A stretch of DNA of 20,000 nucleotides from Candidatus Hermodarchaeota archaeon (GCA_016840065.1 JAEOTB010000037.1:91670-111669), one strand, 5' to 3'. Shown: positions 3,781 to 20,000, counted from the first letter of the stretch. The notes: a model not told the origin generated them from the sequence alone. Numbers and translations: made by a program.

Positions 3781-6700
3781 TCAAGTCCTATCAGCGAGTT
3801 TTAGCCTGGGCCATATCCCTAGGGAAATCAGTTCTTGCAGTACAAGTTTGAAGGCGTATGATATATTTACCTTACTTATTGCTGTGGTCCTAGGTGAGCA
3901 GACTGGACAACGGTGGCGGTCGCGGTTTCGATCATATTCTGCGAGCATTCCACACCCTTCACATACTGATGCAGTGTACTTGTCAGATTCCTCTAGGAGA
4001 CGTTCTCGGAGGAGAAGTGCAGCTCCGTGCCCAATAAGGCAGTCGCGCTCCATTTCGCCGAATCTGAGTCCTCCTTCCCTAGCTCGGCCCTCTGTTGGTT
4101 GTCGTGTAAGAATCTGTACGGGACCTCGTGCTCTAGCATGCATCTTATCAGCAACTAGGTGATGAAGTTTTTGATAGTAGATGACACCAATGAACAAGTC
4201 TACTTCATATTTTTGCCCTGTAATTCCATTGTACATAGTCTCTCGTCCGCTGTATTTGAAGCCTAGCTCGCGCATCTCTTTGAATAATTCTTGAACCTTA
4301 ATCCCTGAAAACGGAGTGCCATCTATCTTTTCACCCTTAAGGCAACCGATTTTCCCTCCAATAGATTCGAGGATTTGACCTAGCGTCATACGACTCGGGA
4401 AAGCATGAGCGTTAACAACAAGATCAGGAACCACTCCAGATTCAGTGAAAGGCATGTCCTCCTGGGGTGCTAGGAGCCCGATGACACCCTTTTGACCGTG
4501 ACGGCTAGCAAATTTATCTCCTAACTCTGGTATCCTCTCGTCTCGAACTTTTACCTTCACCAGACGATTGCCATCGATGTTCTCAGTGAAAACAACCTTG
4601 TCAATAGTTCCTCTTTCGCCGTGTCGAAGGCTGACTGATGTTTCTCGCCTCTTAGGTCCAGGTACTTCTAGTTCTGTGTACTCCTCAAGGAATCTAGGTG
4701 GGCTTGTCCGACCTATGACTATCTCGCCCCCCTTGATTTGGAATTCTGGCTCAATAATACCATCCTCACTCAGTAGACGATAGGATTCAGCGGCTCGATA
4801 TCCACGAACCTCCTTACTCGGAATCTCAAATTTATCCTCTTGCCCACCGGGATATTTACGCTCCTCGGCATCATAGCATCTAAAGAATGTTGATCGGCAA
4901 ATACCCCTTTCAACGGAGGCTTTGTTCATAACTAAAGCATCTTCAATGTTATAACCCTCAAAGCTATGGATTGCTACAACGAGGTTTTGCCCTGCAGGGC
5001 GCCGGTCAAAGCCTATTACCTCCATAGGTCGAGTGGTTACAATTGGACTCTGAACATAGTGAAGCAGATGGCTGCGCGTGTCAACCCGAAGCATAAAATT
5101 GGCGGAGTAAAGACCCAAAGCCTGTTTAGCCATACCTGCTTCGTAGGTATTTCTTGGGGACTGATTATGCTCAGCAAAAGGAACTAGACTCGCACAGATT
5201 CCTAACACGGCTTCAGGCACAAGTTCAAGGTGGGTATGATCTTCAGTGACGTCTTCTGGATTCATAGCAATTAGTGAATTCTCCTCTTCTTCAGCGTCTA
5301 GATACTCAAGGATGCCTGCTCTTACAAGATCATCCCAACTTAATTCTCGGTTACGAATTCTTTCCACATATTGCTTCTCCAGTAATGAAACGCCATCTTT
5401 CACTACGATGAGTGGTCGTCTTACACGACCTGCATCACAATTTACTTGAACCTCTTGTGTATCAGCGTAATAAGCGACATTCACTTCATCACTTAGTTCA
5501 CCCCTTCGCCGCCGATCGCGAAGCCGGGTGACTAGGAGTTCAGGGTTAGCATGAACCCCTATGAATCGACCATTCAAATAGACGTAGATACCTTTGCGGT
5601 CCTCCAAAGATGTGCCTTCTAGAGGTGATAGCTTCAGGGAGAGCAAAGCTTCCTCCACATCAGCTACATCTGAGCCCACAGAGATATACGCCATAAGTGC
5701 CAAGTTTTTCACTAGCCCACAATTTGGCCCCTCAGGAGTTTCTGCCGGACAAATTTTCCCCCAATGCGTCGGATGCAGGTCACGTGCTTCGAAATGTGGT
5801 TGGCTGCGGCTTAAAGGCGAAACAACGCGTCGTAGATGGCTTATTGATGACATGTAGTTAACTCTGTCGAGAAGTTGGCTGACTCCGGCTTTGCCACCAA
5901 CCCAGTTTCCTGTTGCTAGGGCGTGACGTAATCTCTCTGTGATTACATCAGCTCGTACTGCAGTTTTGATTACGGGTTTGCGGCCCCTTGTCGCTGTACG
6001 TTCAAGCTGGTATTTGATATCTCGGCAGAGATTGAGGAATGCAACACGGAAGAGGCTGGTGAGCAAATCTCCTGCTAGTTTAAGCCGCTTGTTTGCATAG
6101 TGGTCTTTATCGTCCTCTGCTCGCTTGTCCAAGGATAACTCGATGAGGCGTTGAGCCATTTGCCCCAAGTAGTGAGCCTTAGCTATCCCTGAACTTGATT
6201 CAGTACCGATATGTGGAAGTAGATATCTATTCAGAACCTGACCCGCTCGTCTTAGACGATAGTCCTTAGTTTGCCCAACCGCCACACGTTTTCCAATGTA
6301 GTCCAGTGCACTTTCACGTGTCGCCTCTGAATCACTCGGGATGACTAGAGATTCAGCGGCGTGAAAACTGGGAATCATCTCTTGCTGAATCGCCGGCTCA
6401 TCACTTACTGCACCAGCTATCTCTCGATCAGTCACCAGACCAAGAGCACGCATTAAAACAACAAGAGGTATCTTTCCTGGGACCGAGGGAAATGATACTC
6501 GGAAGGTGTGATCAGTGCGCCGCTCCATGGTTACGGGAGCTCGGAATCCTCTAGCAGTTGAGAAGACTTTTGTCATGTGTGTGCAGGAGCTACTGCTTGT
6601 CGCTTCCTCGATTAGGATACGATTTGGCGCCAAATCTTCTTGGGTGACTAGCACCCGCTCAGATCCGTTAATCACGAAGTAGCCACCCGGGTCGTTCGGA

Positions 6701-7143
6701 TCCTCACCAGCCTGAATCAATTCTTCAGGTGACATATGCGAGAGACAACAAAAGGAAGACTTGAGCATAATAGGTAGACGGCCAATATAGACCTTTGTTG
6801 TGTCCTTAGGATATTCCATCCCAGTTTTCTCATCTTTATCGATTGGGGTCATTTCAAGGTAAACTGGGGCTGAGTAAGTCAGGTTTCGAATACGTGCCTC
6901 CGAAGGCGTAATCTGTCGAATAGAGCCATCAGCCTCCCTAACAGAAGGATCCCTAATCTCAATCTTACCAATCTTGACATAGAAATTCGGGATATCAGGT
7001 TCGATCTTCCCGACATCACTAACGATTTGCTGAATACGCCGCTCTATGAGGTCGTTAAACGAATCGAGGTGCTGCCGGACGAGGCCCTTCGAAGCGAAGA
7101 AGGACTTCATTACTACCCATCTATCTTCTGAAGTGAGCGACAT
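3781..7143 (-). CDS. rpoB: DNA-directed RNA polymerase subunit B (unsplit)
   Basis: 1120 aa ORF with archaeal Rpo2 motifs: ETPEGPNCGLVKNLAL, GYNIEDALVMNKASVERG, KFASRHGQKGVIG, GGLRFGEMERDCLIGHGAA, and C-terminal zinc motif. Confidence 0.98.
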   Translation of the reverse strand: MSLTSEDRWVVMKSFFASKGLVRQHLDSFNDLIERRIQQIVSDVGKIEPDIPNFYVKIGKIEIRDPSVREADGSIRQITPSEARIRNLTYSAPVYLEMTPIDKDEKTGMEYPKDTTKVYIGRLPIMLKSSFCCLSHMSPEELIQAGEDPNDPGGYFVINGSERVLVTQEDLAPNRILIEEATSSSSCTHMTKVFSTARGFRAPVTMERRTDHTFRVSFPSVPGKIPLVVLMRALGLVTDREIAGAVSDEPAIQQEMIPSFHAAESLVIPSDSEATRESALDYIGKRVAVGQTKDYRLRRAGQVLNRYLLPHIGTESSSGIAKAHYLGQMAQRLIELSLDKRAEDDKDHYANKRLKLAGDLLTSLFRVAFLNLCRDIKYQLERTATRGRKPVIKTAVRADVITERLRHALATGNWVGGKAGVSQLLDRVNYMSSISHLRRVVSPLSRSQPHFEARDLHPTHWGKICPAETPEGPNCGLVKNLALMAYISVGSDVADVEEALLSLKLSPLEGTSLEDRKGIYVYLNGRFIGVHANPELLVTRLRDRRRRGELSDEVNVAYYADTQEVQVNCDAGRVRRPLIVVKDGVSLLEKQYVERIRNRELSWDDLVRAGILEYLDAEEEENSLIAMNPEDVTEDHTHLELVPEAVLGICASLVPFAEHNQSPRNTYEAGMAKQALGLYSANFMLRVDTRSHLLHYVQSPIVTTRPMEVIGFDRRPAGQNLVVAIHSFEGYNIEDALVMNKASVERGICRSTFFRCYDAEERKYPGGQEDKFEIPSKEVRGYRAAESYRLLSEDGIIEPEFQIKGGEIVIGRTSPPRFLEEYTELEVPGPKRRETSVSLRHGERGTIDKVVFTENIDGNRLVKVKVRDERIPELGDKFASRHGQKGVIGLLAPQEDMPFTESGVVPDLVVNAHAFPSRMTLGQILESIGGKIGCLKGEKIDGTPFSGIKVQELFKEMRELGFKYSGRETMYNGITGQKYEVDLFIGVIYYQKLHHLVADKMHARARGPVQILTRQPTEGRAREGGLRFGEMERDCLIGHGAALLLRERLLEESDKYTASVCEGCGMLAEYDRNRDRHRCPVCSPRTTAISKVNISYAFKLVLQELISLGIWPRLKLADRT

Positions 7144-7455: not shown

Positions 7456-7563
7456 TGGCGCCCGCACCGGGATTCGAACCCGGGTCCTAGGAGTGACAGT
7501 CCCAGATGATAGACCTGATTCTGCATTCTGGCAGTTATTGCCAAAATCCTACACTATACGGGC
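7456..7563 (-). tRNA. tRNA-Asp(GTC) with a D-loop intron; CCA encoded
   Basis: Acceptor GCCCGTA/TGCGGGC, anticodon arm TGGGA-CTGTCAC-TCCTA, T arm CCGGG-TTCGAAT-CCCGG, then G-CCA. About 30 extra nt lie between A14G15 and G18G19. Confidence 0.9.
7519..7548 (-). other. Candidate tRNA-Asp D-loop intron (~30 nt; ends uncertain by a few nt)
   Basis: GATTTTGGCAATAACTGCCAGAATGCAGAA contains the 9-bp hairpin ATTTTGGCA-ATAAC-TGCCAGAAT (one G-U). Removal gives a normal-length D arm. Confidence 0.75.
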
Positions 7564-7683
7564 TGCAATAGTTTGCTTTGGGTGTTTGGATAAAAAGCTT
7601 TCTCTGCTTAGTGTGCTACGCACTTGGATTAGTGGTGCTGGTCTAAGAAAAGTGGTGGTCCCGCCTCCCGGATTTGAACCAGG

Positions 7684-7712
7684 TTATGGGTCCTTGAAAT
7701 GCTCCAAGGACA
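7684..7712 (-). other. tRNA-Tyr intron 2 at variable loop/T-stem junction (29 nt)
   Basis: Strict BHB: outer helix ACCAG/CTGGT, central ATGG/CCAT, bulges TTT and AAC, inner helix GTCCTTG/CAAGGAC. Cleavage after the 2nd bulge nt gives variable loop TGGTT followed by T stem CCTGG. Confidence 0.9.
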
Positions 7713-7723
7713 AACCATCTGGT

Positions 7724-7777
7724 TACTGCCTTGACTGACACCACGTCATAACCCGGGGGGCTCAGGGTGCGAGTAAT
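7724..7777 (-). other. tRNA-Tyr intron 1, canonical position 37/38 (54 nt)
   Basis: Intron ATTACTC...GGCAGTA. Splicing gives anticodon loop CTGTAGA closed by TCTGG/CCAGA. Confidence 0.88.
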
Positions 7778-7883
7778 CTACAGCCAGACGCTCTACCGGA
7801 CTAAGCTAAGGCGGGTCCTTTTGGTTTGTTGCCTTCGTTGGTACATTCCTTTTAAGATTTTTCTAAGTGTTCGTTGGCGATTG

Positions 7884-8360
7884 TTACTTTGTTCCTGTGA
7901 TTGTTTTAACGATCTGGTCGGCTGCTTCTTGTATTGGGGGTGTGATTGGTTTGGCGAATTCTACGTTGAGAGGTTGGATTCCGAGGATGAGGATGATTGT
8001 TTCGATTTGGTTGAGGAGGTACTCGATGAAGAAGGTTAGGGGGAGTTGGTGGGTGGAAAATGCGACGCCACCTATGCTGTCCTTGTCTATCAGGCGGATG
8101 GTTCCTGGAGGTTCGTTCATTAGGGCAGCGTCTACGATTAGGGTGAGGGATGGTTTCATTTCGCAGAGTTGACTGATGAAGTTCTCTGGTACGGTGCTGG
8201 CGTTGATTAGTTCCACGTTTTCAGGAACTCTGTTTTGGAGCTGTTTTATTATGTGAGGACCAACACCGTCATCGGCTTTCAAGTCGTTTCCAACGCCTAG
8301 TATGACGGTGCGTGATGATTTCCTAAGCTCTCCTGTTAAGCGTTGTCTCCAAGACTCCAT
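7884..8360 (-). CDS. Hydrogenase maturation protease (HycI/HyaD-like)
   Basis: 158 aa; ILGVGNDLKADDGVGPHI is the hydrogenase maturation protease N-terminal motif, followed by VELINASTVPENF and LIVDAA. Confidence 0.85.
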   Translation of the reverse strand: MESWRQRLTGELRKSSRTVILGVGNDLKADDGVGPHIIKQLQNRVPENVELINASTVPENFISQLCEMKPSLTLIVDAALMNEPPGTIRLIDKDSIGGVAFSTHQLPLTFFIEYLLNQIETIILILGIQPLNVEFAKPITPPIQEAADQIVKTITGTK

Positions 8361-8439
8361 TTTGTGAGAAGAATTTATAATAAGTGATAAAGGTTGCTAT
8401 TCCTAGTAGCATCAACTGATCTGTTGAAGGGGTATACCA

Positions 8440-9045
8440 TTGGTAGATGAGCATCCACTGGAAGAAGTTTCTCTAGATGAAGATAAGGAAGAACCGCGCC
8501 CTCAGCTCCCAGAGGAACCTATAACAGCGAAGCTGTCCAGAGGACGTGTCGTAGTTAAGGGGGAGATGGCCCGTGTTCTATACGACGCTGGGCACTTTGG
8601 CACTTTGAAAAGTGAATTAGAACTCGTCTTAGAGGCTGAGGAAGCCCTCTTACTTATACGACGAAAGCGAATTCAGGTCTTTGACAGAAAAGGAACTGAA
8701 CTAGATTTCTCGGTGTTGCTTCAGATATTATCAGAACGCCACCCTAGATTATGGACGCAGTATCTTGTATACAGTGACCTTAGGAGCAGAGGTTATGTTG
8801 TCCGAACAGGCTATGGAAAAGGACTCTGGTTTCGCGTTTATCCACGGGGCGCCAAACTAAACGAGGCAACAGCGAAATATTTTGTGTGCGCCATATCAGA
8901 GGGTTCACCACTTAAAGTAGCAGAACTTGAGAAGCTTAGCAGTCTAGCGTTAAGGAACCGGAAAAAGCTGATGCTAGCTGTCTTGGATAGACAAGGTGAA
9001 ACAACCTACTATCTAGTTTCACACGCCGACATCACGGCAGACTAG
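8440..9045 (+). CDS. endA: tRNA-splicing endonuclease EndA-family protein, possibly a divergent or non-catalytic subunit
   Basis: 201 aa; YLVYSDLRSRGYVVRTGYGKGLWFRVYPRG and RNRKKLMLAVLDRQGETTYYLVS match the EndA catalytic domain (Tyr and Lys regions present), but the region that normally reads EEHSKYLVH is NEATAKYFV. Confidence 0.85.
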   Translation: MVDEHPLEEVSLDEDKEEPRPQLPEEPITAKLSRGRVVVKGEMARVLYDAGHFGTLKSELELVLEAEEALLLIRRKRIQVFDRKGTELDFSVLLQILSERHPRLWTQYLVYSDLRSRGYVVRTGYGKGLWFRVYPRGAKLNEATAKYFVCAISEGSPLKVAELEKLSSLALRNRKKLMLAVLDRQGETTYYLVSHADITAD

Positions 9046-9076
9046 ATAAAGGGAATAGGTGGCGGGCCCGCCGGGA

Positions 9077-9105
9077 AATTCAGCATACACGATTTGTATA
9101 GCGCG
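9077..9105 (-). other. tRNA-Arg T-loop intron (29 nt, position 59/60)
   Basis: Outer CCGGG/CCCGG, central TTCG/TGAA, bulges AAC and TTT, internal hairpin ATACA-AATCG-TGTAT. Excision gives T loop TTCGAAT. Confidence 0.85.
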
Positions 9106-9144
9106 TTCGAACCCGGGATTACTGGCTTAGGAGGCCAGCGCCTT

Positions 9145-9165
9145 CTTCGGGGTATCAGTGAACCA
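9145..9165 (-). other. tRNA-Arg D-loop intron (21 nt, position about 20a/21)
   Basis: TGGTTCACTGATACCCCGAAG; central helix TCGG/CCGA, bulges ATT and AGA. Excision gives D arm GCCAAGTCGGATAAGGC. Confidence 0.83.
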
Positions 9166-9233
9166 ATCCGACTTGGCCACGGGCCCTCGGAATCACCCTG
9201 TGCTAGAGGAAACACCTATTTCCATATTTCGCT

Positions 9234-9920
9234 TCATTTCACTAAACGTTTGATATCCGAGTCAGTGCCCACATAAACAGCGTTAGTTTGGTGGGGAAAT
9301 AGGCCAGTTTCTAGAACCCCAGGTATTGATATCAATTGGCAATCTAGTTGGGCAGCATCAATGATTTCTGAAAATGTCACATCGACGATGAAATTTCCAT
9401 TATCGGTGATTACAGGACCAGCTTTGCGATGGGCTTGCCTCACCTTTGGCGTACCCCCAAGTTCTCTAATTCTCTTCAAGGAAAGTGACAAAGCAGGAGG
9501 TATCACCTCAACAGGCACAGGCATTTTCACACCCAGCTTCGAAACAAGTTTTCCTTGATCTACGATAACGATGAACTCCTCGGCGGTTTCAGCAAGAATC
9601 TTTTCCCGCAAAAGCGCGGCACCACCCCCCTTGATTAACGCGAGTTGACTATCAACCTCATCTGCCCCGTCAATTGCAAGTGGAATCGTCGATATACTGG
9701 TTAGGCATTCTACTCTAAATCCAGCAGCTCGGAGCCGATGACCAGTAGCAAAGGAGCTAGGAACGGTTACAATCGAGATCTTGTCCGCAGCCACCTTTTC
9801 TATCAACAGGTCTATGAAAATATCAACCGTCGAACCAGTGCCAACGCCAAGGGTCATTCCATCAGTAACGTGGACCAGCGCTGCTTCAGCAGCCCTTCGC
9901 TTCTCATCTATTGCAGCCAT
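9234..9920 (-). CDS. rpiA: Ribose-5-phosphate isomerase A
   Basis: 228 aa; GLGTGSTVDIFIDLL, IDGADEVD, LIKGGGAALLREKI, ETGLFPHQTNAVYVG. Confidence 0.96.
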   Translation of the reverse strand: MAAIDEKRRAAEAALVHVTDGMTLGVGTGSTVDIFIDLLIEKVAADKISIVTVPSSFATGHRLRAAGFRVECLTSISTIPLAIDGADEVDSQLALIKGGGAALLREKILAETAEEFIVIVDQGKLVSKLGVKMPVPVEVIPPALSLSLKRIRELGGTPKVRQAHRKAGPVITDNGNFIVDVTFSEIIDAAQLDCQLISIPGVLETGLFPHQTNAVYVGTDSDIKRLVK

Positions 9921-9992
9921 TGATTCAACCTTCCATCCCTCCAGTCTCCTAGAACTTAATATAACTTACCAAGGAGCCGAGAAGAAAATAGA

Positions 9993-10069
9993 TGGAGCCT
10001 CGGGCGGGATTCGAACCCGCGACCCTCGCCTTACCAAGGCGATGCGCTACCGAGCTATGCCACCGAGGC
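9993..10069 (-). tRNA. tRNA-Thr(GGT), intronless; CCA encoded
   Basis: 77 nt: GCCTCGG/CCGAGGC acceptor, anticodon arm TCGCC-TTGGTAA-GGCGA, T arm GCGGG-TTCGAAT-CCCGC, T-CCA. Confidence 0.96.
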
Positions 10070-10098
10070 TCATATGAAGAGAAGTGCCGAGGGCGGGC

Positions 10099-10123
10099 TT
10101 TTCGCCGAACATTGCTGTTCAGT
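10099..10123 (-). other. tRNA-Met T-loop intron (25 nt, position 59/60)
   Basis: Strict BHB: outer GCGGG/CCCGC, central TTCG/CGAA, bulges AAA and AAG, inner CTGAACA-GCAA-TGTTCGG. Excision gives T loop TTCGAAG. Confidence 0.9.
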
Positions 10124-10145
10124 TTCGAACCCGCGATCTCCAGAT

Positions 10146-10191
10146 GGCTCCGGCGCCAGGTTCAATTATAATTGACCCTGGGGCAACGCCC
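10146..10191 (-). other. tRNA-Met intron 1, canonical position 37/38 (46 nt)
   Basis: GGGCGTTGCCCCAGGGTCAATTATAATTGAACCTGGCGCCGGAGCC; internal hairpin CCAGG..CAATTATAATTG..CCTGG. Confidence 0.87.
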
Positions 10192-10375
10192 TATGAGTCT
10201 GGCGCTCGAACCAGGCTAAGCTACCTCGGCGTTTCCCTATCCCTGATTCGTTCCTTTTAATTCTTATTCTCAGGACCGCTACCCCCATTCAGTGCTCGAA
10301 GCAGTTTTAAAGAGAAGGCTGTCTCATCATTGAATGCGGGGGCCCTTCAAGGGTCAGCGACCGCATGACAAGGCG

Positions 10376-10476
10376 GCGGGGGTTTCCAAGAGACCCTATA
10401 GCCAAGCCTGGTCAAAGGCGCAGGACTTAAGATCCTGTCTCGCAGGAGTTCCCGGGTTCGAAGCCCGGCCCCCGCA
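10376..10476 (+). tRNA. tRNA-Leu(TAA) with a 16-nt intron between positions 8 and 9; CCA not encoded
   Basis: Acceptor GCGGGGG/CCCCCGC, D arm GCCAAGCCTGGTCAAAGGC, anticodon arm CAGGA-CTTAAGA-TCCTG, long variable arm, T arm CCGGG-TTCGAAG-CCCGG. Spliced length is 85 nt. The exact 5' end is ambiguous because GCGGGGG is duplicated 40 bp upstream. Confidence 0.87.
10384..10399 (+). other. tRNA-Leu intron at 8/9 (16 nt)
   Basis: TTCCAAGAGACCCTAT; outer GGC/GCC, central GGGG/CCCT, bulges GTT and ATA. Excision gives T8-A9 before the D stem. Confidence 0.75.
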
Positions 10477-10545
10477 CCTTTCTTTTAGATAACCTCACTT
10501 CCAGTTAGAAAATGAAAAGCCGTTTTCATAAGGAAAAAAGGAGAG

Positions 10546-10651
10546 TGGAGCCTCGGGCGAGGATTGAACTCACGACCAGCAGCTTACAAGGTTCAACGTT
10601 ACCGGTTTGGTTTCCGGAAACTCTGTCGCTCTACCACTGAGCTACCGAGGC
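10546..10651 (-). tRNA. tRNA-Thr(TGT) with an intron in the anticodon stem; CCA encoded
   Basis: Acceptor GCCTCGG/CCGAGGC identical to tRNA-Thr(GGT), D arm GCTCAGTGGTAGAGC, spliced anticodon arm ACAGC-CTTGTAA-GCTGC (A27-C43 mismatch), T arm GTGAG-TTCAATC-CTCGC, T-CCA. Spliced length 75 nt. Confidence 0.87.
10592..10622 (-). other. tRNA-Thr(TGT) intron at 30/31 (31 nt)
   Basis: Outer GAG/CTT, central CGAC/GTTG, bulges AGA and AAC, inner GTTTCCGG/CCGGTAAC (one T-T mismatch). Confidence 0.8.
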
Positions 10652-10763
10652 ACTCCTGCAGGTGAAGGATTACTACTATATGACTTTTATTGCGGTTGTT
10701 GAGGCGGCGGGGCTTGACAGGTAACCTTTTTCAATACCTCAGTTATTCATTCTTGTACTCAGC

Positions 10764-10869
10764 GGGCTGGTGGTCTAGATTCCCAGAAGGATAGCCTTCT
10801 GGACTAGATTGGTATGATTCGCGGTTTGGGTCCGTGAGATCCCGGGTTCAAATCCCGGCCGGCCCACCA
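10764..10869 (+). tRNA. tRNA-Pro(TGG) with a D-loop intron; CCA encoded
   Basis: Acceptor GGGCTGG/CCGGCCC, D arm GTCTAGATTGGTATGAT after splicing, anticodon arm CGCGG-TTTGGGT-CCGTG, T arm CCGGG-TTCAAAT-CCCGG, A-CCA; spliced length 77 nt. Confidence 0.92.
10781..10809 (+). other. tRNA-Pro D-loop intron (29 nt; ends slide within a CTAGATT direct repeat)
   Basis: Perfect 8-bp hairpin CCAGAAGG-ATAG-CCTTCTGG flanked by CTAG/CTAG, with CTAGATT repeated at both junctions. Confidence 0.85.
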
Positions 10870-10946: not shown

Positions 10947-11065
10947 GGACGCGGTCATAGAAACTGGGTCACTCCCGGTCCCGTTCTGATCCCGGAAGAT
11001 AAGCCGGTTTCGTCTGTCCGAGTACTGATGTCCGAGAGGCTTCGGAAAAGGTCCGAACTGCGTCC
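10947..11065 (+). rRNA. rrf: 5S ribosomal RNA
   Basis: 119 nt; helix I GGACGCGGT/ACTGCGTCC closes the ends; conserved CATAG, ACTCCCGGTCCCGTTCTGATCCCGGAAGATAAGCC, GTACTG and GGAAAAGG segments match archaeal 5S rRNA. Confidence 0.92.
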
Positions 11066-11074
11066 ATTTCTTCT

Positions 11075-11094
11075 GCCTTTTAGCAAAGGTTTTT
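11075..11094 (+). terminator. Hairpin plus T-tract downstream of 5S rRNA
   Basis: CCTTT-TAGC-AAAGG followed by TTTTT. Confidence 0.6.
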
Positions 11095-11149
11095 ATTCGC
11101 TATTGGAACCGTTCGGGAAATAGATACAGATTACTGGTGAGCTATACAA

Positions 11150-12250
11150 ATGCAAGTTGGTACCGAGTGGTCGTGGATATTTCAGTTAATATTCATGGTC
11201 TTGTTTTTACTGATTTACCTTTACGGAACACGACTTCAGACATACATGATGCAGCGGCAAGTTGAAGCTGCTACAGTGCAGCTAGAGTCACTTTCAAAGC
11301 AGGGCAAACAGATTGCCTTTCGAGTGTTTAAAGAAATTGGAGTAGCGGAAGACGCTATCAATGCAGCCGTTGAAGAGTTCATGGAGTTCTTCATAATTGA
11401 GCCTGTGAACGTTGATCCAGCTGGCGTTCTGGGGAGATTGGAGCATCTTTTAGATGTACGCACACACAGATACGAGAAACACATAGCGCGGGTTGCTCCA
11501 AAAGCTGAACCTGCGCTAGCAGCTAACGCGGAGAGTGTACTCAGTGCAGCGATGGCTGTTTACTATGTTTTCCGTGTTGTACGTCACTACTTGATTCTCG
11601 GAAAGAAGACGAAGAGCCTTTACCTAATCATGCAGGTCCAGATGCAACTCCCACAAATCATGCAGATGGCTAAAGCCTACTTTGACGCCATTAAAGCATT
11701 TGCTGATGGTAAGCCCATAGGAGACGGTATGGGTCCTTTAGCTGTTGCACACCTAGCTCGAGAATTAAAGGCAAATAAATCTGAGGAGCTTGCACGGCAC
11801 ACAGTGTCCATTTCCGCCAAGTTTGAAGGACGAACTTTACACATTGTTCGCGCAAAGGGACATGGCTCACATGTAGGCAAGCCTGGCGAAGCAATTAGGA
11901 AGTTAGTTGACCGCCACAAAAGCAAAGTCGCTAGGATTATCACAGTTGATGCCGGCTTGAAGCTTGAGGGTGAAGATAGTGGACATGTCATTGAAGGAGT
12001 CGGTGCGGCAATTGGTGACCCTGGACCAGAGAAATGGAAAATGGAAGAGTCAGGTGTCAGATACGACATCCCGATTGATGCTATCGTTATCAAAGAGTCT
12101 CTCGAAGATGCCCTCAGCCCGATGAAAAAAGCGCTTGTTGATGCTGTCCCAAAGGTTATTGAACGGATAAAAAGTGCTATTCGCCTTCGTACAAAGAAGG
12201 GTGACACCATCATTGTAGCGGGCATTGGCAACACAATGGGTATTGCGTGA
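11150..12250 (+). CDS. DUF1512-type conserved archaeal membrane-anchored protein
   Basis: 366 aa with N-terminal TM segment (FQLIFMVLFLLIYLYGTRLQ) and C-terminal DAGLKLEGEDSGHVIEGVGAAIGDPGPEK...DAIVIKESLEDAL...GNTMGI; recognised as the archaeal DUF1512 family from memory. Confidence 0.75.
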   Translation: MQVGTEWSWIFQLIFMVLFLLIYLYGTRLQTYMMQRQVEAATVQLESLSKQGKQIAFRVFKEIGVAEDAINAAVEEFMEFFIIEPVNVDPAGVLGRLEHLLDVRTHRYEKHIARVAPKAEPALAANAESVLSAAMAVYYVFRVVRHYLILGKKTKSLYLIMQVQMQLPQIMQMAKAYFDAIKAFADGKPIGDGMGPLAVAHLARELKANKSEELARHTVSISAKFEGRTLHIVRAKGHGSHVGKPGEAIRKLVDRHKSKVARIITVDAGLKLEGEDSGHVIEGVGAAIGDPGPEKWKMEESGVRYDIPIDAIVIKESLEDALSPMKKALVDAVPKVIERIKSAIRLRTKKGDTIIVAGIGNTMGIA

Positions 12251-12310
12251 AGTAAATTCCTTCATTCGAAGGGTTCTCAACATAGGAATTCAGAAATATC
12301 CAAAGGAGTC

Positions 12311-12817
12311 ATGGGAGGTCATTCATTGCCTGAACACCGTTACGATTGGGTGGCGATAGGCGGCACCTTTGACAGGCTTCACAAAGGACACAAGGTTCTA
12401 TTAAGCAGAGCCTTCGAGCTTGGCAACAACGTTCTCGTTGGCTTGACAACTCAATCAATGATAACCCACAAACCAGACTGGGAATTAATAGCCCCTTACG
12501 AAGAAAGAGCAGCTAAACTAAGACATTGGATGGAATCTGAGGGCTATAAAGGGCGCTTCACTATCGAACCCTTATGCGACCCTTATGGGCCAGCAATAAC
12601 AGAGGAGAAACTACAACTCATTGTTGTAAGCGAAGAAACCTACACCAGGGCCGTTGAAATCAACGAAATTCGGCAACAACGTGGGCTCCCAATCCTAGAC
12701 ATAGCAGTGCTTACAATGGTTTTAGCAGAGGACAAAACCTCTATTTCTTCAACACGAATCCGAGCAGGGATAATTGATCAAGATGGTCAGCTCGAATACC
12801 GCGACCGCTCCACTTGA
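12311..12817 (+). CDS. coaD: Phosphopantetheine adenylyltransferase (archaeal type)
   Basis: 168 aa; nucleotidyltransferase motif AIGGTFDRLHKGHKVLLSRAFE and ISSTRIRAG. Confidence 0.92.
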   Translation: MGGHSLPEHRYDWVAIGGTFDRLHKGHKVLLSRAFELGNNVLVGLTTQSMITHKPDWELIAPYEERAAKLRHWMESEGYKGRFTIEPLCDPYGPAITEEKLQLIVVSEETYTRAVEINEIRQQRGLPILDIAVLTMVLAEDKTSISSTRIRAGIIDQDGQLEYRDRST

Positions 12818-12857
12818 CAGTGGAAGGCTTTAAGTGTAGGCAATAGATTTCTTTCAT

Positions 12858-13185
12858 TTAGCGATGAAAGGATACTGCCACCTACGAGGTCATGTCTGAA
12901 GGTATGGACCCTGATGAAGACTTGAGCATAATGGTGGCGACACTGGAGCTAGTTGAGGGTTATGCGGCATGTGACAGGCTCCTACACGATCTACGGCGTG
13001 GCGCCAAGAGGTGATTGTTGGGGCAACCCAGAATGTCCACAACTCAACGCCGGGTCGAGTCTAGTTCGCATATCTCGGCACATCAAGAGAGGACCTGCCG
13101 GAGGGTTGAAGGCGTTTCGCCCACCGAGGACGGTGGGGAGTTAGTGTTCTCGAGGAACAGAGCAAGGCCGACCCACCAATTATTT
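12858..13185 (+). ncRNA. Candidate structured non-coding RNA, family unassigned
   Basis: No plausible ORF (only 60-63 aa overlapping open frames); relatively GC-rich; multiple complementary segments (12877-12882/12933-12938, 12994-12999/13047-13052, 13118-13124/13129-13135 with AGGA-type 4-nt loop); possible TATA-like element at 12829-12834. Confidence 0.5.
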
Positions 13186-13193
13186 CAAAACTT

Positions 13194-14075
13194 ATGACAT
13201 CTAGCAGAGTGAGTTACGTGAATAGTCATCAAAGCCGACCACGTAGAAGTTTTTTCAAGTTTCTTCAACAACGCTTAGGTGACAAGATCCCGGATACCCT
13301 GCTGCCACGACGCCTTCGTCTCTACGGTCATGTAGCTGTTCTCTGGTTAGACCCTAAGATTCTATCTCAAAGTGAAGTTGTGGGAAAAACAGTTCTGGAA
13401 TACGATTCTCGAATACATTCAGTTTTAAGACGCACCAATCCAATTTCAGGCCCCTTTCGTCAGCCAGCTTTGGAGGTAATTGCTGGTTCGCATGAGACAG
13501 AGACTGTCTTTTCAGAGAATAGGTGCACTTTTCATATCGATCCAATGAAAGTCATGTTCTCCCTTGGAAATAAAGCGGAACGAGAACGCATGAGCAAACT
13601 AGGAACAAATGAAGTTGTTGTAGACATGTTCGCGGGTATTGGGCAATTCACAATCCCAATGGCAGTTCATGCCTCTCCTCAAGTTATTCACGCAATTGAA
13701 TGGAACCCAGATGCCTTTCATTACCTCCAACGAAATATCCGTTCTAATCGAGTTAATGATATTGTGACCTCTCACCAAGGAGACGCAGCTATCATCGCGC
13801 CTGATGTAGCTCAAAACCAATCAGATCGTGTATTAATGGGATTAGTGCAAGGTACAGTACAATATATCAATCAGGGAATAGTGTGCCTTCGACCAGGCGG
13901 GGTTCTACACTATCATGAAATCTGCCCTCGCCCCGATGCATGCGCCATTGCAGCAAAACAAGTCGAACGCGCTGCTCAGCAATTGGACAGAAAAGTACGA
14001 ATTTTAAATGCTCGGGTAATCAAGTCCTATAACTCACAGAGCGATCATGTAGTTTTGGATATACAAGTTGATTAG
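13194..14075 (+). CDS. Trm5/Taw2-family class I SAM-dependent tRNA methyltransferase
   Basis: 293 aa; VVDMFAGIGQFTIPMAVHA...HAIEWNPDAFHYLQRNIRSNRV...DRVLMGLVQGTVQYINQGIVCLRPGGVLHYHEI, typical of Trm5/TYW2. Not resolvable between the two by eye. Confidence 0.85.
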   Translation: MTSSRVSYVNSHQSRPRRSFFKFLQQRLGDKIPDTLLPRRLRLYGHVAVLWLDPKILSQSEVVGKTVLEYDSRIHSVLRRTNPISGPFRQPALEVIAGSHETETVFSENRCTFHIDPMKVMFSLGNKAERERMSKLGTNEVVVDMFAGIGQFTIPMAVHASPQVIHAIEWNPDAFHYLQRNIRSNRVNDIVTSHQGDAAIIAPDVAQNQSDRVLMGLVQGTVQYINQGIVCLRPGGVLHYHEICPRPDACAIAAKQVERAAQQLDRKVRILNARVIKSYNSQSDHVVLDIQVD

Positions 14076-14088
14076 TAGGTGGGTCGGT

Positions 14089-15186
14089 TTATCGGGTAGT
14101 AGTGTAACTATCGACCTCCCTTAGAAGTTCGTTGGCTTCTGTGTTTTGAATGAAGTATTCACGGACGGGCGTCAATAGTTCTGCAATAGCCTTTGCTGCT
14201 GCTTGTTTTAAATCTAAGGGATGGATTTCGCCTGATGCAAAAAGTGTGTTCAGTTCATCAACAGTTCCAATGCTTAGAGGACCACCATGTTTTTCAGAAC
14301 GCTCGACAGTGAAAACACAATCTTTCTGAGAGAAGAGGAGGTGACGTACATAGCCCAAAACTGGGTTGTCAGTAACCTCCCTAGCAGGACAGTAGGCGTT
14401 ACGTAATTTCTTCATTATTTCTTTAGGTGCATCATGAATGAGAATTGAATCATCGGGTTTAGATTTTGACATCTTCGTGGCAACTGCTAAATCCTGAGCC
14501 GATGTGCTAGAGGATGCCTCCATTCTAGATGACCCGCTCAGCCCTGAGAGTAGGGGAGTGTGAACACCAATTGGTTTCCAGTCGAGCTTAAGTTTCTCGG
14601 CAACTTCTCTTGCCAAGACATGAGCTCGTCGCTGATCCATGCCGCCTAAGCATACTTCGAATTGCTGATTAATAATATCAGATACTTGAAGACAGGGATA
14701 TATGAGCTTCGAGAAGTCTAGTTCTGCATCTTCTCCGCTTCGACCCATGATTGTCATTGAACGCCGAACTCGAGCCAGAGTAAGGCTTTTCGCGACTCGG
14801 AGTGTATCTTCCCAATATTCAAGTTTTTTCATTAGATTCTCAGCTGTTACAACGCGAACTTTTCGGAGATTCACGCCTAATGCTGAAAAACAGTGTCGGA
14901 GATACACAGCACACCGTCTAATTTGATCAATATTACCACCGAATTTGTCGTTTATCTTGGCATGCCATGTCGCGAGTAACACATGCATCTTCACACCCAA
15001 ATCTGAGAGCGTTCGCAACTTTTGAACCCAGACTGCATGACCCAAGTGCATCAATCCGGTAGGTTCAACCCCTACGTAGCCACGAGGTTTCTCTTTTCTA
15101 GCAAGTACAACTTTCAAGTCATCCAGAGTTACAACTTCTTCAGTTTGAAAAACGGCTTTCGCTACAGTTGGAGGCAATTCTTCCAT
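14089..15186 (-). CDS. tyrS: Tyrosyl-tRNA synthetase
   Basis: Class I motifs GVEPTGLMHLGHAVW and KMSKSKPDDSILIHD; archaeal TyrRS C-terminus GDL-like/HPLDLKQAAAKAIAELLTPVREYF. The track ORF starts at 15330; internal Met at 15186 (MEELPPTVAKAV) is the better start. Confidence 0.88.
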   Translation of the reverse strand: MEELPPTVAKAVFQTEEVVTLDDLKVVLARKEKPRGYVGVEPTGLMHLGHAVWVQKLRTLSDLGVKMHVLLATWHAKINDKFGGNIDQIRRCAVYLRHCFSALGVNLRKVRVVTAENLMKKLEYWEDTLRVAKSLTLARVRRSMTIMGRSGEDAELDFSKLIYPCLQVSDIINQQFEVCLGGMDQRRAHVLAREVAEKLKLDWKPIGVHTPLLSGLSGSSRMEASSSTSAQDLAVATKMSKSKPDDSILIHDAPKEIMKKLRNAYCPAREVTDNPVLGYVRHLLFSQKDCVFTVERSEKHGGPLSIGTVDELNTLFASGEIHPLDLKQAAAKAIAELLTPVREYFIQNTEANELLREVDSYTTTR

Positions 15187-15308
15187 TTTTCTATACTCTC
15201 CACTTCGAGGCAACAATAGGGCTGATATAAAGGTTATTGTTTCCTTTTCATGGTAATTCTTTAGAGAAAAAGAAGTCATAATATAATTCAAATCGGTGTC
15301 AACAGAAG

Positions 15309-15728
15309 ATGCCAACCACACGCAATGCATCGTCAGTAATGCAAAAATTACTAGAAGAGGGTTTTAGGAATGGTGTTGCGTTACTGGTGGAATTATCGAA
15401 GAATGGAGTAGTGGTTATTGTGGAGGGTCAAAAGGATGTGATATCCTTAAGGCATTTGGGACTAACAGGACCAATTATTCCTCTTGCAGGGCATAGTGTG
15501 CTCACACTAGCGGAAATGCTTGCAGGGAATGCTCAAGTTTTGATACTTTTCGACTTTGATACTCGGGGCGAGCAACTTACTAGATTATTAATTTCGCAAT
15601 TACACGGAACAGGGACGAGAGTACATCATGATTTTCGTAGGAAACTAAAGAAAGCGTTCAGTTGGCAATCCAGAGTAATCGAAGGATTAAGACCCCTAAA
15701 TAGGGATACAAACACCACAAAGTTTTAA
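15309..15728 (+). CDS. Small Toprim-domain protein
   Basis: 139 aa; VVIVEGQKDVISLRHLGLTGPIIPLAG and VLILFDFDTRGEQLTRLL, the E and DxD Toprim motifs. Confidence 0.85.
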   Translation: MPTTRNASSVMQKLLEEGFRNGVALLVELSKNGVVVIVEGQKDVISLRHLGLTGPIIPLAGHSVLTLAEMLAGNAQVLILFDFDTRGEQLTRLLISQLHGTGTRVHHDFRRKLKKAFSWQSRVIEGLRPLNRDTNTTKF

Positions 15729-15882
15729 TCACCCTCCACTCCAGTCTCATCTTGTATCATGCTTACATACCGTCAAGCCCAGTCTTGACGTCTTAACTTG
15801 GTATATCATTCACAGATATGATTGTGGTGAAGGAATAACACACCACTCATAACACATAACCAATCAAAATCATCCCTAGGTG

Positions 15883-17185
15883 ATGAACTTGGGTTCAAGT
15901 ACGCCTAGTAGTGCTACTACAAAGTATGAAATCCGATGTAAAATAGAAATTAGCGGAGTTGTTGAGACTCCAGATGTCGTTGGAGCGCTCTTTGGTCAAA
16001 CAGAGGGCCTACACTTCATGATACGCGTTTCATGAAGGGGTAATCGGTGAAGATTTAGATCTGAGAGAACTGCAGCAGTCTGGACGAATAGGTCGAATAA
16101 AGGTTGAACTACACTCAGAGGGAGGAAAATCCCGCGGAATAATAGTAATCCCTTGCAGCCTTGACCGTACTGAAACAGCCATTCTTGCAGCGGCATTGGA
16201 GACAGTTGACAGAGTTGGACCGTGTTCAGCGAAAATCACTCTGGAGAAGGTTGAAGATGTCCGTGACTCTAAACGCAAACAGATTATTGATCGAGCTGTG
16301 GCTTTACTGCGTGTATGGGAGGGTGAAACCTCTCCAGGGGCACAGGAGATAACCGATAAAGTTACACGTGAAACGAAGACAGCAGAAATCACTCGATTTA
16401 ATGGGCTTCCTGCGGGTCCTTCTGTTCAAGAATCAGATACAATAATCGTCGTAGAAGGGAGGGCTGATGTCCTCGCATTGCTCCGAGCAGGAATAAAGAA
16501 CGTTGTTGCAGTTGAGGGTACCAGTATTCCTCCTTCCATCATAAAACTAGCAAAAACAAAAACGATTATTGCCTTCCTTGACGGCGATAGGGGTGGCGAC
16601 TTGATTCTTAAAGAATTGTCTCAGGTTACAGATATCAAGTTTGTAGCGCGAGCGCCAGCGGGACGTGAGGTTGAAGAACTTACAACAAAGGAGATAACCA
16701 AAGCTCTTAGAAATAAAGTGCCTGCATCCCAGGTTGTTGGACGGATAAAACGAGGGGTAAGCGAGTCGGCAACAACAAGAGCCTCTTCAACTCCAAAACG
16801 CAGAACTCGCCGAACAACACAGAAAACAACTGCACCGCGGCGAACTGCAACCCGTTCTAAGACCACGACCAGAAGTGTTACACGACCAAAAAGTGGAAGC
16901 ATCCCTAAACCGATTCGAGAATTAGCTGAGAAAATACAAGAGACAATGACTGCAATGATACTCGATAAGGATAAGAAGGTCTTGAAAGAAGTTCATGTCG
17001 CAGAACTGGCTTCAATGCTGCAAGAAATAGAAAAAGCGAAAACAATCATTCTCGATGGTGTAATCACTCAGCGACTGGTAGACATCGCTGGTGAACGTGG
17101 AGTGACCCTAATCATAGGCGCGAGAACCGGTAAAATTGTAAAGAGACCCGTGAAAATCAAGATACACACATTCAACGATTTATGA
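15883..17185 (+). CDS. dnaG: Archaeal DnaG-type primase, interrupted by a 31-nt intron-like insertion (exon 1 15883-16012, exon 2 16044-17185)
   Basis: Exon 1: [43 protein letters not shown]; exon 2: (L)[60 protein letters not shown]...[26 protein letters not shown]...[13 protein letters not shown]. Joined exons total 1272 nt = 424 codons, in frame. The ORF track only shows the 3' part from 16196. Confidence 0.88.
16013..16043 (+). other. Candidate protein-gene BHB intron in dnaG (31 nt)
   Basis: ACTTCATGATACGCGTTTCATGAAGGGGTAA; inner 8-bp helix CTTCATGA/TCATGAAG, central GCCT/GGGT (2 G-U), bulges ACA and AAT. Outer helix is weak. Excision gives GGC CTA C|TC GGT = G-L-L-G. Confidence 0.8.
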
Positions 17186-17276
17186 AGAAAATCCCAATAG
17201 CCAATGAGGAGCAAGGCTTAAATAGCGAGCTACCTCATTTTCGCCTTCAGCCGCATCACATCAAGGAGCCTCCAGT

Positions 17277-17561
17277 ATGTCGAAAAGGAGTATGGAATTT
17301 ACAAGGACTCTACAACTTATTGGACTCTTTTTTGGCTTTAGTGCTGGGGCTGTGGTTTTCCTCAACCTAGTGCTTGATTGGTCTTGGGACCTTGTAGCCG
17401 GCATTTTCTTCACCTCCACGTTATTGCTTTGTGGATTATCTTTTGGTGTCGCGGGTCTTATGACAGAAAACCCTGAAAGAACTCGTAAACTCTTTGGCGA
17501 ATGGCTTGCTGGTAGCGTAGCAGTATTGATTTTCGTCATTACCATTTACGCAATAATTTAG
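17277..17561 (+). CDS. Small hydrophobic (predicted two-TM or more) membrane protein of unknown function
   Basis: 94 aa with hydrophobic stretches LIGLFFGFSAGAVVFLNLVL, LVAGIFFTSTLLLCGLSFGVAGLM and VAVLIFVITIYAII. Confidence 0.6.
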   Translation: MSKRSMEFTRTLQLIGLFFGFSAGAVVFLNLVLDWSWDLVAGIFFTSTLLLCGLSFGVAGLMTENPERTRKLFGEWLAGSVAVLIFVITIYAII

Positions 17562-17699
17562 GGGTAAAATAATAGCTTAATCCACTGAAATAATTCAAGG
17601 AATCAGCAATATATATTTGGCAATTATTGGTTGGCCTTATTCTCCAGTAATTTCACGCCCATAATAGCCCGCTGCTCTCATTTCCTCTTTCAAGAAATA

Positions 17700-17709
17700 A
17701 ATTTATATT
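17700..17709 (+). promoter_or_regulatory. Possible TATA box upstream of the ATPase subunit D gene
   Basis: AATTTATATT 40 nt upstream of the start codon at 17749. Confidence 0.45.
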
Positions 17710-17748
17710 CGTCACGGATTTTACTGAGTGTTTAACTGAGGGGCTCCT

Positions 17749-18408
17749 ATGTCTGCGGTAGATAAGCTAGAGGATATCAAACCAACTCGTATGGAGCTAA
17801 TCGCCCTAAAAGAACGACGTGAGTTAGCAGCACGTGGCTATGAATTGCTCCGAGAGAAACGTGATGCTCTTGTACGCGAGTTCTTTGCAATTCTTTCTGA
17901 AGCGAAAAAGCTGAGAGAAGAAGTTGAAACAACCCTGGACGAAGCGTTCTCATCATTAATGGAGGCAAAACTTGTGGAAGGGGAGATGAAGTTGGAGGGG
18001 CTTGCACTAGGTGCACAGAGCTTCCTCGACTTCGAAGTCACAACACGGAATTTAATGGGTGTTTCGGTTCCAATATTTCGAGTAACTCAGCAAGAAGATC
18101 AGCCTCGTATTCATTATAGTTTGGCTGGTACTTCAGCTGTAGTTGATGCTGCAGCTCAAAAAATCAGAGAGACTCTGGACAAGATTGTAAGACTTGCAGA
18201 AGTCGAAGCCTCGGTAAAACGCCTAGCAGCAGAAATCGAGAAAACTAAAAGACGCGTTAACGCGCTTAACTTCGTTGTTCTCCCGCGAATAAACAACACA
18301 ATCAGGTATATCGAGCTTGCACTGGAGGAAGCTGAAAGAGAGGACCTGTTTAGACTTAAGCGTGTTAAGGCCCTTCTAGAAAGCAAAACCACATCTGAAT
18401 CTGAGTAG
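17749..18408 (+). CDS. atpD: V/A-type ATP synthase subunit D
   Basis: 219 aa; IKPTRMELIALKERRELAARGYELLREKRDALVREFF... and RRVNALNFVVLPRINNTIRYIELALEEAEREDLFRLKRVK are subunit D hallmarks. Confidence 0.95.
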   Translation: MSAVDKLEDIKPTRMELIALKERRELAARGYELLREKRDALVREFFAILSEAKKLREEVETTLDEAFSSLMEAKLVEGEMKLEGLALGAQSFLDFEVTTRNLMGVSVPIFRVTQQEDQPRIHYSLAGTSAVVDAAAQKIRETLDKIVRLAEVEASVKRLAAEIEKTKRRVNALNFVVLPRINNTIRYIELALEEAEREDLFRLKRVKALLESKTTSESE

Positions 18409-18450
18409 ACTCTTTTCGAGGACTTCTCCTAAAGCGACATCTTCTAGGTT

Positions 18451-18840
18451 TCAGCCACCAGTTAGTACGATAATTGCTTTTGCCAAGTTACCTTCAGCTT
18501 GTTGGAGCGCTTCGCGAGCTTGTTCTTCTGTGACTGCTGCTTGGCTAGCCACAAGTTGAACATCTTCCTCTGTAAATGTAGCCTTCGATTCAGTGGGTAC
18601 TTCACTGTCCACATCAGTTGAAGCGGTTGGGGCCCTTTCCACATGTTGACCTATAATCTGGTAAATCGTCTCACCTTGGGCCTGCATCATTACTATTTGA
18701 GGTTCGGAGATGACTAGCTCTTTATTGGGAAAGCGGATTATCACTTCGGTGGCGCCGTCCATTTGCTCATAATCAACACCGGCTTTCCTCATTTGCCGCT
18801 CCATTGAACGGCGTTTAACGCGCCTTTTGACTTTGACCAT
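18451..18840 (-). CDS. nac: Nascent polypeptide-associated complex protein (archaeal NAC with UBA domain)
   Basis: 129 aa; NAC core (AGVDYEQMDGATEVIIRFPNKELVISEPQIVMMQAQGETIYQIIG) and UBA-like C-terminus (EEDVQLVASQAAVTEEQAREALQQAEGNLAKAIIVL). Confidence 0.93.
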   Translation of the reverse strand: MVKVKRRVKRRSMERQMRKAGVDYEQMDGATEVIIRFPNKELVISEPQIVMMQAQGETIYQIIGQHVERAPTASTDVDSEVPTESKATFTEEDVQLVASQAAVTEEQAREALQQAEGNLAKAIIVLTGG

Positions 18841-18946
18841 TTTTTGTCACTCGGATTCGATTGTTATTTTATATTCGGATGGCGTTTGCGAGACAAGTGT
18901 ACTGTTAATTTGAGTAGAGGAATCAGCTTTTTTATTTTATGTTCTG

Positions 18947-19450
18947 CTAACTGAGACCAGCTGATTTTCTGGTATGACGTATTCGAACAGCTGTTCCACG
19001 TGTCAACTCTAGCATTTCTTGGGGGCAGAGATAAGTTTTACCAACTGCAAGGAGTCTGTCTTCTTGATCTACGATAAGCGCTTCATCACGCGCCCTCAAT
19101 TGAGAGTCGACCTGAATTACATGTTTAGCGAAGACACTGCGCCCTTTCCTAATAAAGGGAGAAATCTCATTTGGGACCATTACTCGGTAACGTGGTGATT
19201 GTGATGCCTTATGGAGACGCTCCCCACCCGGAAATGTCAGGACGATACGACCATCTCTTGCTCGGAGGATTGCAAGAAGGTTTCCTTCAAATGAAATATA
19301 TCGAATGCGTCCTGTCCCTCTAGAATATTTAATTTTACATCCATCAGGGAACAAAGATTCTCCAATATCCTCTCCGAATTGGTAATTTGCCACGCCTCTC
19401 ACTTTAAAGAGAGGATTAACCGTAGATGTCAGCGTTGTCTCCTTTCCCAA
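18947..19450 (-). CDS. PUA-domain protein
   Basis: 167 aa; [48 protein letters not shown] and [57 protein letters not shown] (PUA motif). Confidence 0.82.
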
Positions 19451-20000
19451 TAGTTTCGCCCAACACCTTAGCTATTGATTTCACAAAGTCGAGGTTTGTA
19501 ACAGTATCACGCAACTCACGAATTGTGAACATACCTGCTTCAGTGCAGATAGCCTTCAAGTCAGCACCTGAGGCGCCGGGGCTTTTTATTGCCAATTGAG
19601 AGAGGTCAACATCTGAGGCGATGTGCATCTTCCGTGTATGAATTTTGAGTATCTGTTCCCGTGCAGCCCTGTCTGGCAGAGGAAACTCAATAATGCGATC
19701 GAAACGACCAGGACGAGTCAATGCTGGGTCAAGTATGTCAGGGCGATTTGTCGCGGCAATAATTCGCACATCACCACGTGGGTCAAAACCGTCTAACATA
19801 CTTAGCAGCTGCATTAAAGTTCGTTGAACCTCGCGATCACCACTAGTGGCGATGTCTAACCGGCGGCTGGCAACCGCGTCCAACTCGTCTATGAAGATGA
19901 TGCTTGGTGCTCGTTTTCTTGCCATGAAAAAGATTTCCCGCACAAGTCGAGCGCCCTCACCAATGAATTTTTGGATCAATTCCGACCCGATAACACGGAT
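19416..20000 (-). CDS. pan: Proteasome-activating nucleotidase (AAA+ ATPase), truncated by window edge
   Basis: Frame open to 20000 ([47 protein letters not shown]...[57 protein letters not shown]...[18 protein letters not shown]). Walker B, SRH and PAN C-terminal region present. Confidence 0.93.

Follow-up and report, generated by a model that had tools for sequence, protein, structure and literature searches.

An Asgard tRNA gene cluster in which seven of eight genes carry archaeal-type introns, most of them at non-canonical positions

In archaea, tRNA introns are removed by the tRNA splicing endonuclease, which cuts both bulges of a bulge-helix-bulge (BHB) motif, and the exons are then ligated by RtcB (reviewed in PMC4090602). 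To our knowledge, relaxed BHB motifs without an outer helix are cleaved only by the (alpha-beta)2 or epsilon2 forms of the enzyme, equipped with a specificity loop. Non-canonical and multiple tRNA introns are said to have been described in Thermoproteales by Sugahara and colleagues in 2008 and Fujishima and colleagues in 2010. An (alpha-beta)2 endonuclease with an L1 loop, able to cleave relaxed BHB motifs, is found in TACK and Asgard archaea (Kaneta et al. 2018, PMC5829648). In complete genomes of the Asgard groups Atabeyarchaeia and Freyarchaeia, 92-95% of the tRNA genes contain introns (Valentin-Alvarado et al. 2024, PMC11291895); 228 introns were counted in three genomes, often at non-canonical positions, with several introns in more than half of the genes and three or four in some (PMC11291895). 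We analysed a stretch of 20,000 nucleotides (nt) from a Candidatus Hermodarchaeota archaeon (JAEOTB010000037.1:91670-111669), hereafter the window, which holds a tRNA gene cluster at positions 7456-10869. We consider it very probable that the cluster consists of eight functional tRNA genes of a Hermodarchaeia archaeon, seven of them interrupted by a total of ten archaeal-type, protein-spliced introns. Support comes from the rise from two to eight ARAGORN calls after removal of the introns, the ten BHB motifs, natural intron-less alleles, exon conservation and covariation, and also from the placement of RpoB, an EndA-family gene inside the cluster and the published Asgard precedent.

RpoB of the window is 97% identical to that of a Candidatus Hermodarchaeota metagenome-assembled genome (MAG; locus L001), and 84-85% identical to that of five further loci (L002 to L005 and L016), two of which are labelled Hermodarchaeota or Hermodarchaeum. 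The next tier, at 67-71%, comprises Jord/Frey-like and unnamed Asgard loci, and Thermofilum stands at 60%. A local gene order tRNA / HycI / EndA / RpiA is common to the window and related loci, and Hermodarchaeota belong to the Asgard kingdom Promethearchaeati in the NCBI taxonomy. On these comparisons, the source is an Asgard archaeon of the Hermodarchaeia clade, outside the Thermoproteales. The original prediction had called for such a placement with RpoB, and held that this density of introns would be notable outside the Thermoproteales. The window does lie outside that group, but the density is not unprecedented, as Atabeyarchaeia and Freyarchaeia show (PMC11291895).

The cluster resembles these two groups (PMC11291895) in coming from an Asgard archaeon and in having most tRNA genes interrupted, often at non-canonical sites and by several introns per gene (2 to 4 in the published genomes). 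With Atabeya-1 (PMC11291895) it shares a Met-CAU / Leu-UAA / Pro-UGG neighbourhood and a HycI-EndA gene pair. It differs in belonging to the class Hermodarchaeia, with RpoB about 67-71% identical to Jord/Frey-like loci, and in that eight genes are compared here with a genome-wide census. With the Thermoproteales it has in common short BHB introns in the D-arm, anticodon stem, variable region and T-loop, several per gene, strict as well as relaxed motifs, and fast turnover between related genomes; the lineage, however, is another one (RpoB 60% to Thermofilum), and no sign was seen here of the recent intron transposition described there. No paper describing tRNA introns in Hermodarchaeia was found in the literature searched. 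We conclude that this is the phenomenon known from Atabeyarchaeia and Freyarchaeia, met in another Asgard class; a specialist would expect it, and its novelty, weakened by the Asgard placement and the 2024 report, is modest. Extreme tRNA-gene fragmentation is thereby extended to a further Asgard class, and what is added is a set of ten boundaries verified by alignment, evidence for fast turnover, and a lack of similarity between introns.

Both strands of the cluster were read by hand, and features are listed in Table 1. The ten introns measure 16 to 54 nt, which amounts to 1.25 introns per gene. The original prediction of eight genes with about ten introns in some 3.4 kb was exact: only two introns, in Tyr and Met, are at the canonical 37/38 position, and the eight others lie where they had been announced, at 8/9, in the D-loops of Asp, Arg and Pro, at 30/31, at the junction between variable loop and T-stem (48/49), and twice at 59/60, with two introns in each of the Tyr, Arg and Met genes. 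Its reading of these segments as archaeal tRNA introns, mostly non-canonical, held for all ten on the basis of the BHB motifs, in-silico splicing and orthologue alignments. Applied to the raw window, ARAGORN called two of the eight tRNAs, the Asp call being mis-drawn, and Rfam gave five matches at the gathering score, several with large internal insertions; the unspliced Arg(CCU) gene was missed by both. Upon in-silico removal of the ten segments, ARAGORN called eight complete cloverleaf tRNAs out of eight, with the expected anticodons. Standard finders thus miss most such genes, and the tRNA sets drawn up for Asgard MAGs will be too small unless the tools take BHB motifs into account. An Rfam search at E<=1 over positions 11000-20000 found no further tRNA or other RNA. 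Matches to a T-arm pattern outside the cluster fell within coding regions and were rejected as tRNAs.

Table 1. Annotated features of the window (central, outer and inner refer to the helices of the BHB motif; hBHBh' is the strict motif, with both flanking helices; bp, base pairs; aa, amino acids).
Feature	Position	Strand	Remarks
RpoB gene	3781-7143	-	
tRNA-Asp(GUC)	7456-7563	-	encoded CCA; one D-loop intron; spliced form called by ARAGORN
Asp D-loop intron	7519-7548 (30 nt, 15/16) or 7520-7547 (28 nt, 16/17)	-	two BHB registers
tRNA-Tyr(GUA)	7656-7815	-	encoded CCA; two introns; Rfam tRNA 40 bits, two large insertions; spliced form called by ARAGORN
Tyr second intron, 29 nt, 48/49	7684-7712	-	strict hBHBh'; outer 6 bp, inner 10 bp
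Tyr canonical intron, 54 nt, 37/38	7724-7777	-	strict hBHBh'; central CUGU/GCAG, outer 7 bp
HycI hydrogenase-maturation protease gene	7884-8360		divergent from the EndA-family gene
EndA-family protein, 201 aa	8440-9045	+	Pfam tRNA_int_endo N and C domains; inside cluster
tRNA-Arg(CCU)	9060-9186	-	encoded CCA; two introns; spliced form called by ARAGORN
Arg T-loop intron, 29 nt, 59/60	9077-9105	-	strict hBHBh'; outer helix is the T-stem
Arg D-loop intron, 21 nt, 20a/21	9145-9165	-	central UCGG/CCGA, no outer helix, inner 3 bp
tRNA-Thr(GGU)	9993-10069	-	intron-less, the sole such gene of the eight; ARAGORN call; Rfam 61.5 bits
tRNA-Met(CAU), elongator Met or Ile2 type	10085-10230	-	no encoded CCA; two introns; spliced form called by ARAGORN
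Met T-loop intron, 25 nt, 59/60	10099-10123	-	strict hBHBh'; central UUCG/CGAA, outer 5 bp, inner 7 bp
Met canonical intron, 46 nt, 37/38	10146-10191	-	central 3/4 (4/4 in L002), outer 5 bp, inner 7 bp
Conserved 39-nt 5' leader of tRNA-Leu	10337-10375	+	opens with GCGGGGG, identical to the acceptor 5' strand
tRNA-Leu(UAA)	10376-10478	+	one intron; Rfam partial match; spliced form has a long variable arm (ARAGORN)
Leu intron, 16 nt, 8/9	10384-10399	+	strict hBHBh'
tRNA-Thr(UGU)	10546-10651	-	encoded CCA; one intron; Rfam 45.5 bits, 40-nt insertion; spliced form called by ARAGORN
Thr(UGU) intron, 31 nt, 30/31	10592-10622	-	strict hBHBh'; central CGAC/GUUG, outer 3 bp, inner 3 bp
tRNA-Pro(UGG)	10764-10869	+	encoded CCA; one intron; spliced form called by ARAGORN
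Pro D-loop intron, 29 nt, 17/17a	10781-10809	+	central self-complementary CUAG/CUAG; inner 8 bp after one mismatch
5S rRNA gene	10947-11066	+	Rfam RF00001, 69.6 bits; adjoins cluster
DUF1512 protein	11150-12250		
Trm5/Taw2-family tRNA methyltransferase	13194-14075		
Tyrosyl-tRNA synthetase	14089-15330		

The junctions were scanned for BHB motifs with a geometry of outer helix, 4-bp central helix, 3-nt bulge and inner helix, mirrored on the 3' side, the cut being set after the second base of the 3-nt bulge. All ten junctions present the 3-nt bulge / 4-bp helix / 3-nt bulge motif, with four of four central pairs in nine junctions and three of four in the remaining one (Met 37/38). The motif is strict, with both flanking helices, in 7 of the 10 introns; the three D-loop introns have no outer helix. 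Short BHB-like motifs arise by chance throughout the region, and what counts is therefore the presence of one at the sole junction whose splicing gives back a tRNA. This held for 10 out of 10 introns, and when the intron was shuffled with exons held fixed, an equally good motif was obtained in 0 to 0.9% of 5000 trials per intron. Once transcribed, every intron would fold with its exon flanks into a BHB, whose 3-nt bulges would each be cut behind their second nucleotide by the tRNA splicing endonuclease; the exons would be joined by an RNA ligase, RtcB in archaea; splicing by such cleavage and ligation is what we infer at the ten junctions. Given their lack of an outer helix, the three D-loop introns would need a broad-specificity (alpha-beta)2 endonuclease with an L1 loop.

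Four of the loci with RpoB at 84-85% (L002, L003, L004 and L016) reach far enough upstream to hold the cluster, and all four have the same tRNA genes in the same order. None of them has the Tyr 48/49 intron, and all read CCAGAUGGUU followed directly by CCUGG at the junction, which is the predicted splice product. A scan of metagenome contigs with the Tyr junction pattern gave 13 further loci devoid of the insert, 12 of which span the gene, so that the junction is the predicted product in 16 out of 16 full-length intron-less Tyr orthologues. Similarly, Thr(UGU) orthologues in L002, L003 and L093 have no intron at 30/31, and their junctions are as predicted. The existence of natural intron-less alleles with the predicted junctions therefore validates the cleavage rule.

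The same comparison revealed differences in intron content. At the Tyr 48/49 site, L094 has a different 29-nt intron, and the canonical Tyr intron is kept in 14 of 14 aligned relatives. The Asp D-loop intron is missing in L002, L004 and L016, where a 30-nt canonical intron is found instead, and L003 has both. An Asp gene in L094 (217-322) has an intron near the variable-loop/T-stem junction, and one in L085 (1727-1804) has none there. Met genes of L003 (3995-4173), L004 and L016 have a third intron of 32 nt at 30/31 with a strict BHB, and the Pro gene of L003 (1195-1340) a second one, in the anticodon stem. The Pro D-loop site is shared with L003, in which the inner helix is a contiguous 5 bp, and Pro is intron-less in L093; the Leu 8/9 site is occupied in relatives by a 23-nt intron. 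Altogether, five intron sites (Asp, Tyr, Met, Thr(UGU) and Pro) vary among genomes about 15% apart in RpoB. Judging by these alignments, introns turn over fast between related genomes, on short evolutionary time-scales, with a bearing on the spread of BHB introns and on the co-evolution of endonuclease and substrates in the closest archaeal relatives of eukaryotes. An all-against-all comparison of introns found no similarity beyond orthologues, and recent intron transposition, of which such similarity would be a sign, was not retained.

Across five genomes, identity is 94-99% in the exons and 52-74% in the introns. Such exon conservation, while the inserts drift, is not what one expects if the interrupted genes were decaying pseudogenes with random insertions, functional copies of which would lie elsewhere in the genome. 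That our view is confined to 20 kb leaves room for such copies, Thr(UGU) is diverged and has a stem mismatch, and a related contig (L088) does contain a degenerate second Leu copy. However, each insert has a BHB around it at the sole site whose splicing restores the cloverleaf, the same genes are found in the same order in at least four other genomes, and TATA-like boxes are present upstream of the tRNA genes (a scan for sigma-70 promoters and terminators was uninformative, counts being the same as in shuffles). The BHB helices moreover covary. In an alignment of the Arg gene of the window with four orthologues, the four intron-dependent helices are 94% paired, with five pairs changed on both sides, and the covariation score was reached in 0 of 500 shuffles; sliding the partners by one to three columns brought pairing down to 36-53%. 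The D-loop central helix of Arg covaries (U-A in 3 sequences, C-G in 2), and compensatory changes are found in the inner helix of its T-loop intron. For Leu, 93% of the BHB positions pair across four genomes and one of the pairs is compensatory, and RNAalifold on 14 Tyr genes recovered the anticodon stem together with the central and inner helices of the canonical BHB. Decay into pseudogenes is in our view highly improbable. We give next to no credence to assembly or binning artefacts, that is, chimeric joins: the window comes most probably from a MAG and its close relatives are all MAGs, but assemblies made independently, in different studies and from different samples (L002, L003, L004, L016, L082-L095), have orthologous introns at the same positions, with sequences that have diverged while the structure was preserved. 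As far as the alignments tell, the cluster genes are conserved and constrained, and are neither pseudogenes nor assembly artefacts.

There is very little chance, too, that the window derives from the Thermoproteales or another TACK lineage, the density of introns being then the classical crenarchaeal case. Non-canonical and multiple introns are classically tied to the Thermoproteales, but RpoB goes from the Hermodarchaeota MAG to Jord- and Freyarchaeia long before it reaches Thermofilum (identities above), and the HycI-EndA neighbourhood is listed for Atabeyarchaeia too. We thus retain functional, intron-bearing genes of a Hermodarchaeia archaeon, against which the following points must be set. 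Splicing was deduced rather than observed, and from 20 kb of the genome. The Thr(UGU) gene shows a mismatch, A27.C43, and compared with its orthologues it has diverged in sequence and lies in the opposite orientation. Each boundary of the Asp intron is uncertain by 1 nt. Finally, the EndA paralogue of the window has no catalytic His, and no catalytic subunit was seen in the 20-kb window.

The EndA-family protein aligns over its full length with M. jannaschii EndA. It keeps the catalytic Tyr and Lys, has a Thr at the position of M. jannaschii His125, and is without the L1/crenarchaea-specific loop (CSL) insertion at the place where the S. tokodaii alpha subunit has a loop. The catalytic His is missing in 74 of 74 close homologues, and in NCBIfam the protein best matches models of dimeric EndA, in their N-terminal, non-catalytic half. 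From these features, the protein is probably a structural (beta-like) subunit of the splicing endonuclease. The (alpha-beta)2 enzyme is reported from Asgard archaea (PMC5829648), and the protein has the size of one of its subunits; unlike the catalytic subunit of that enzyme, it has neither the catalytic His nor the L1 insertion, and it resembles the structural partner. Neither a catalytic EndA subunit nor an RtcB-type ligase is encoded in the 20-kb window, and the catalytic alpha subunit would be encoded elsewhere in the genome. The EndA-family gene adjoins the HycI gene, and Atabeya-1 lists two K01170 (EndA) genes, one of which is beside HycI as in the window (PMC11291895).

For the Asp intron, two BHB registers were compared. 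The 28-nt register has a central helix of 4/4 pairs and an inner helix of 8 bp, and leaves a D-loop of 13 nt; the 30-nt register has 3/4 central pairs and a 9-bp inner helix, and leaves an 11-nt D-loop, the length found in orthologues, for which ARAGORN draws a normal D-arm. We favour the 30-nt register, as read from the sequence. In the Arg D-loop, a 10-nt intron proposed by the automatic scan was rejected, as it would leave a 22-nt D-loop; it is the 21-nt intron, and not the 10-nt version, that is backed by covariation of its central helix. Thr(GGU) lies 15 nt downstream of tRNA-Met on the same strand (gap 10070-10084), with no promoter-like box in between, and the two genes are probably co-transcribed.

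The tRNA-Leu gene is preceded by a leader that is kept in L002, L003, L004, L088 and L093 and contains an invariant GGGUCAGCG. A box reading CGAAGCAnTTTTAAr, similar to a B recognition element (BRE)/TATA box, is found 21-31 nt upstream of the first GCGGGGG copy, and the leader should therefore be transcribed. RNAalifold gave a weak fold for the leader and no covariation. Pairing of the leader with the T-loop and 3' acceptor strand into a strict BHB, whose outer helix has 10 bp, is possible in the window alone. A Leu intron of about 54 nt starting from the upstream GCGGGGG (10337) was rejected: the two copies are not linked by any BHB, and U8 is lacking after the first one. For the 16-nt intron at 8/9, the BHB is strict and conserved. 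In L088 (9644-9722, SMTZ1_10008384), exon 2 of tRNA-Leu(UAA) occurs a second time, with an AT-rich box of its own upstream and a degenerate 5' exon that reads GAAGGGGC in place of GCGGGGGU; this copy is a pseudogene, or possibly half of a split gene.

The 54-nt Tyr intron is unusually conserved: 14 sequences follow the pattern GCACC-NN-GA-GCC(loop)GGC-NRU-GA-C-NN-GGUGU, in which GA and UGA are invariant and the flanks vary. This pattern matches a kink-turn (K-turn), with a 3-bp stem, a 3-nt bulge, tandem G.A pairs and a second helix. An L7Ae-binding site is one possibility, a degenerate C'/D' box another; Rfam gave no match for this region (7724-7777).

The Thr(UGU) gene is inverted relative to the orthologous position (L002:86-160, L003:2195-2269) and differs in its T-arm, and its acceptor stem is identical to that of Thr(GGU) in the window. 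Together with the A27.C43 mismatch, this suggests gene replacement or conversion.

A broader reading, which we hold to be unlikely though worth stating, is that the tRNA introns of Hermodarchaeia are actively mobile, not static, and are accompanied by a lineage-specific pre-tRNA processing system. Such a system might include the EndA paralogue without catalytic His, the K-turn-like motif in the Tyr intron and the Leu leader with its mimicry of the acceptor strand. If true, turnover at five sites would imply an ongoing mechanism of gain and loss in the archaeal lineage closest to eukaryotes.

Beyond the cluster, the neighbourhood at 11150-15330 is rich in translation-related genes, together with the 5S rRNA gene (Table 1).

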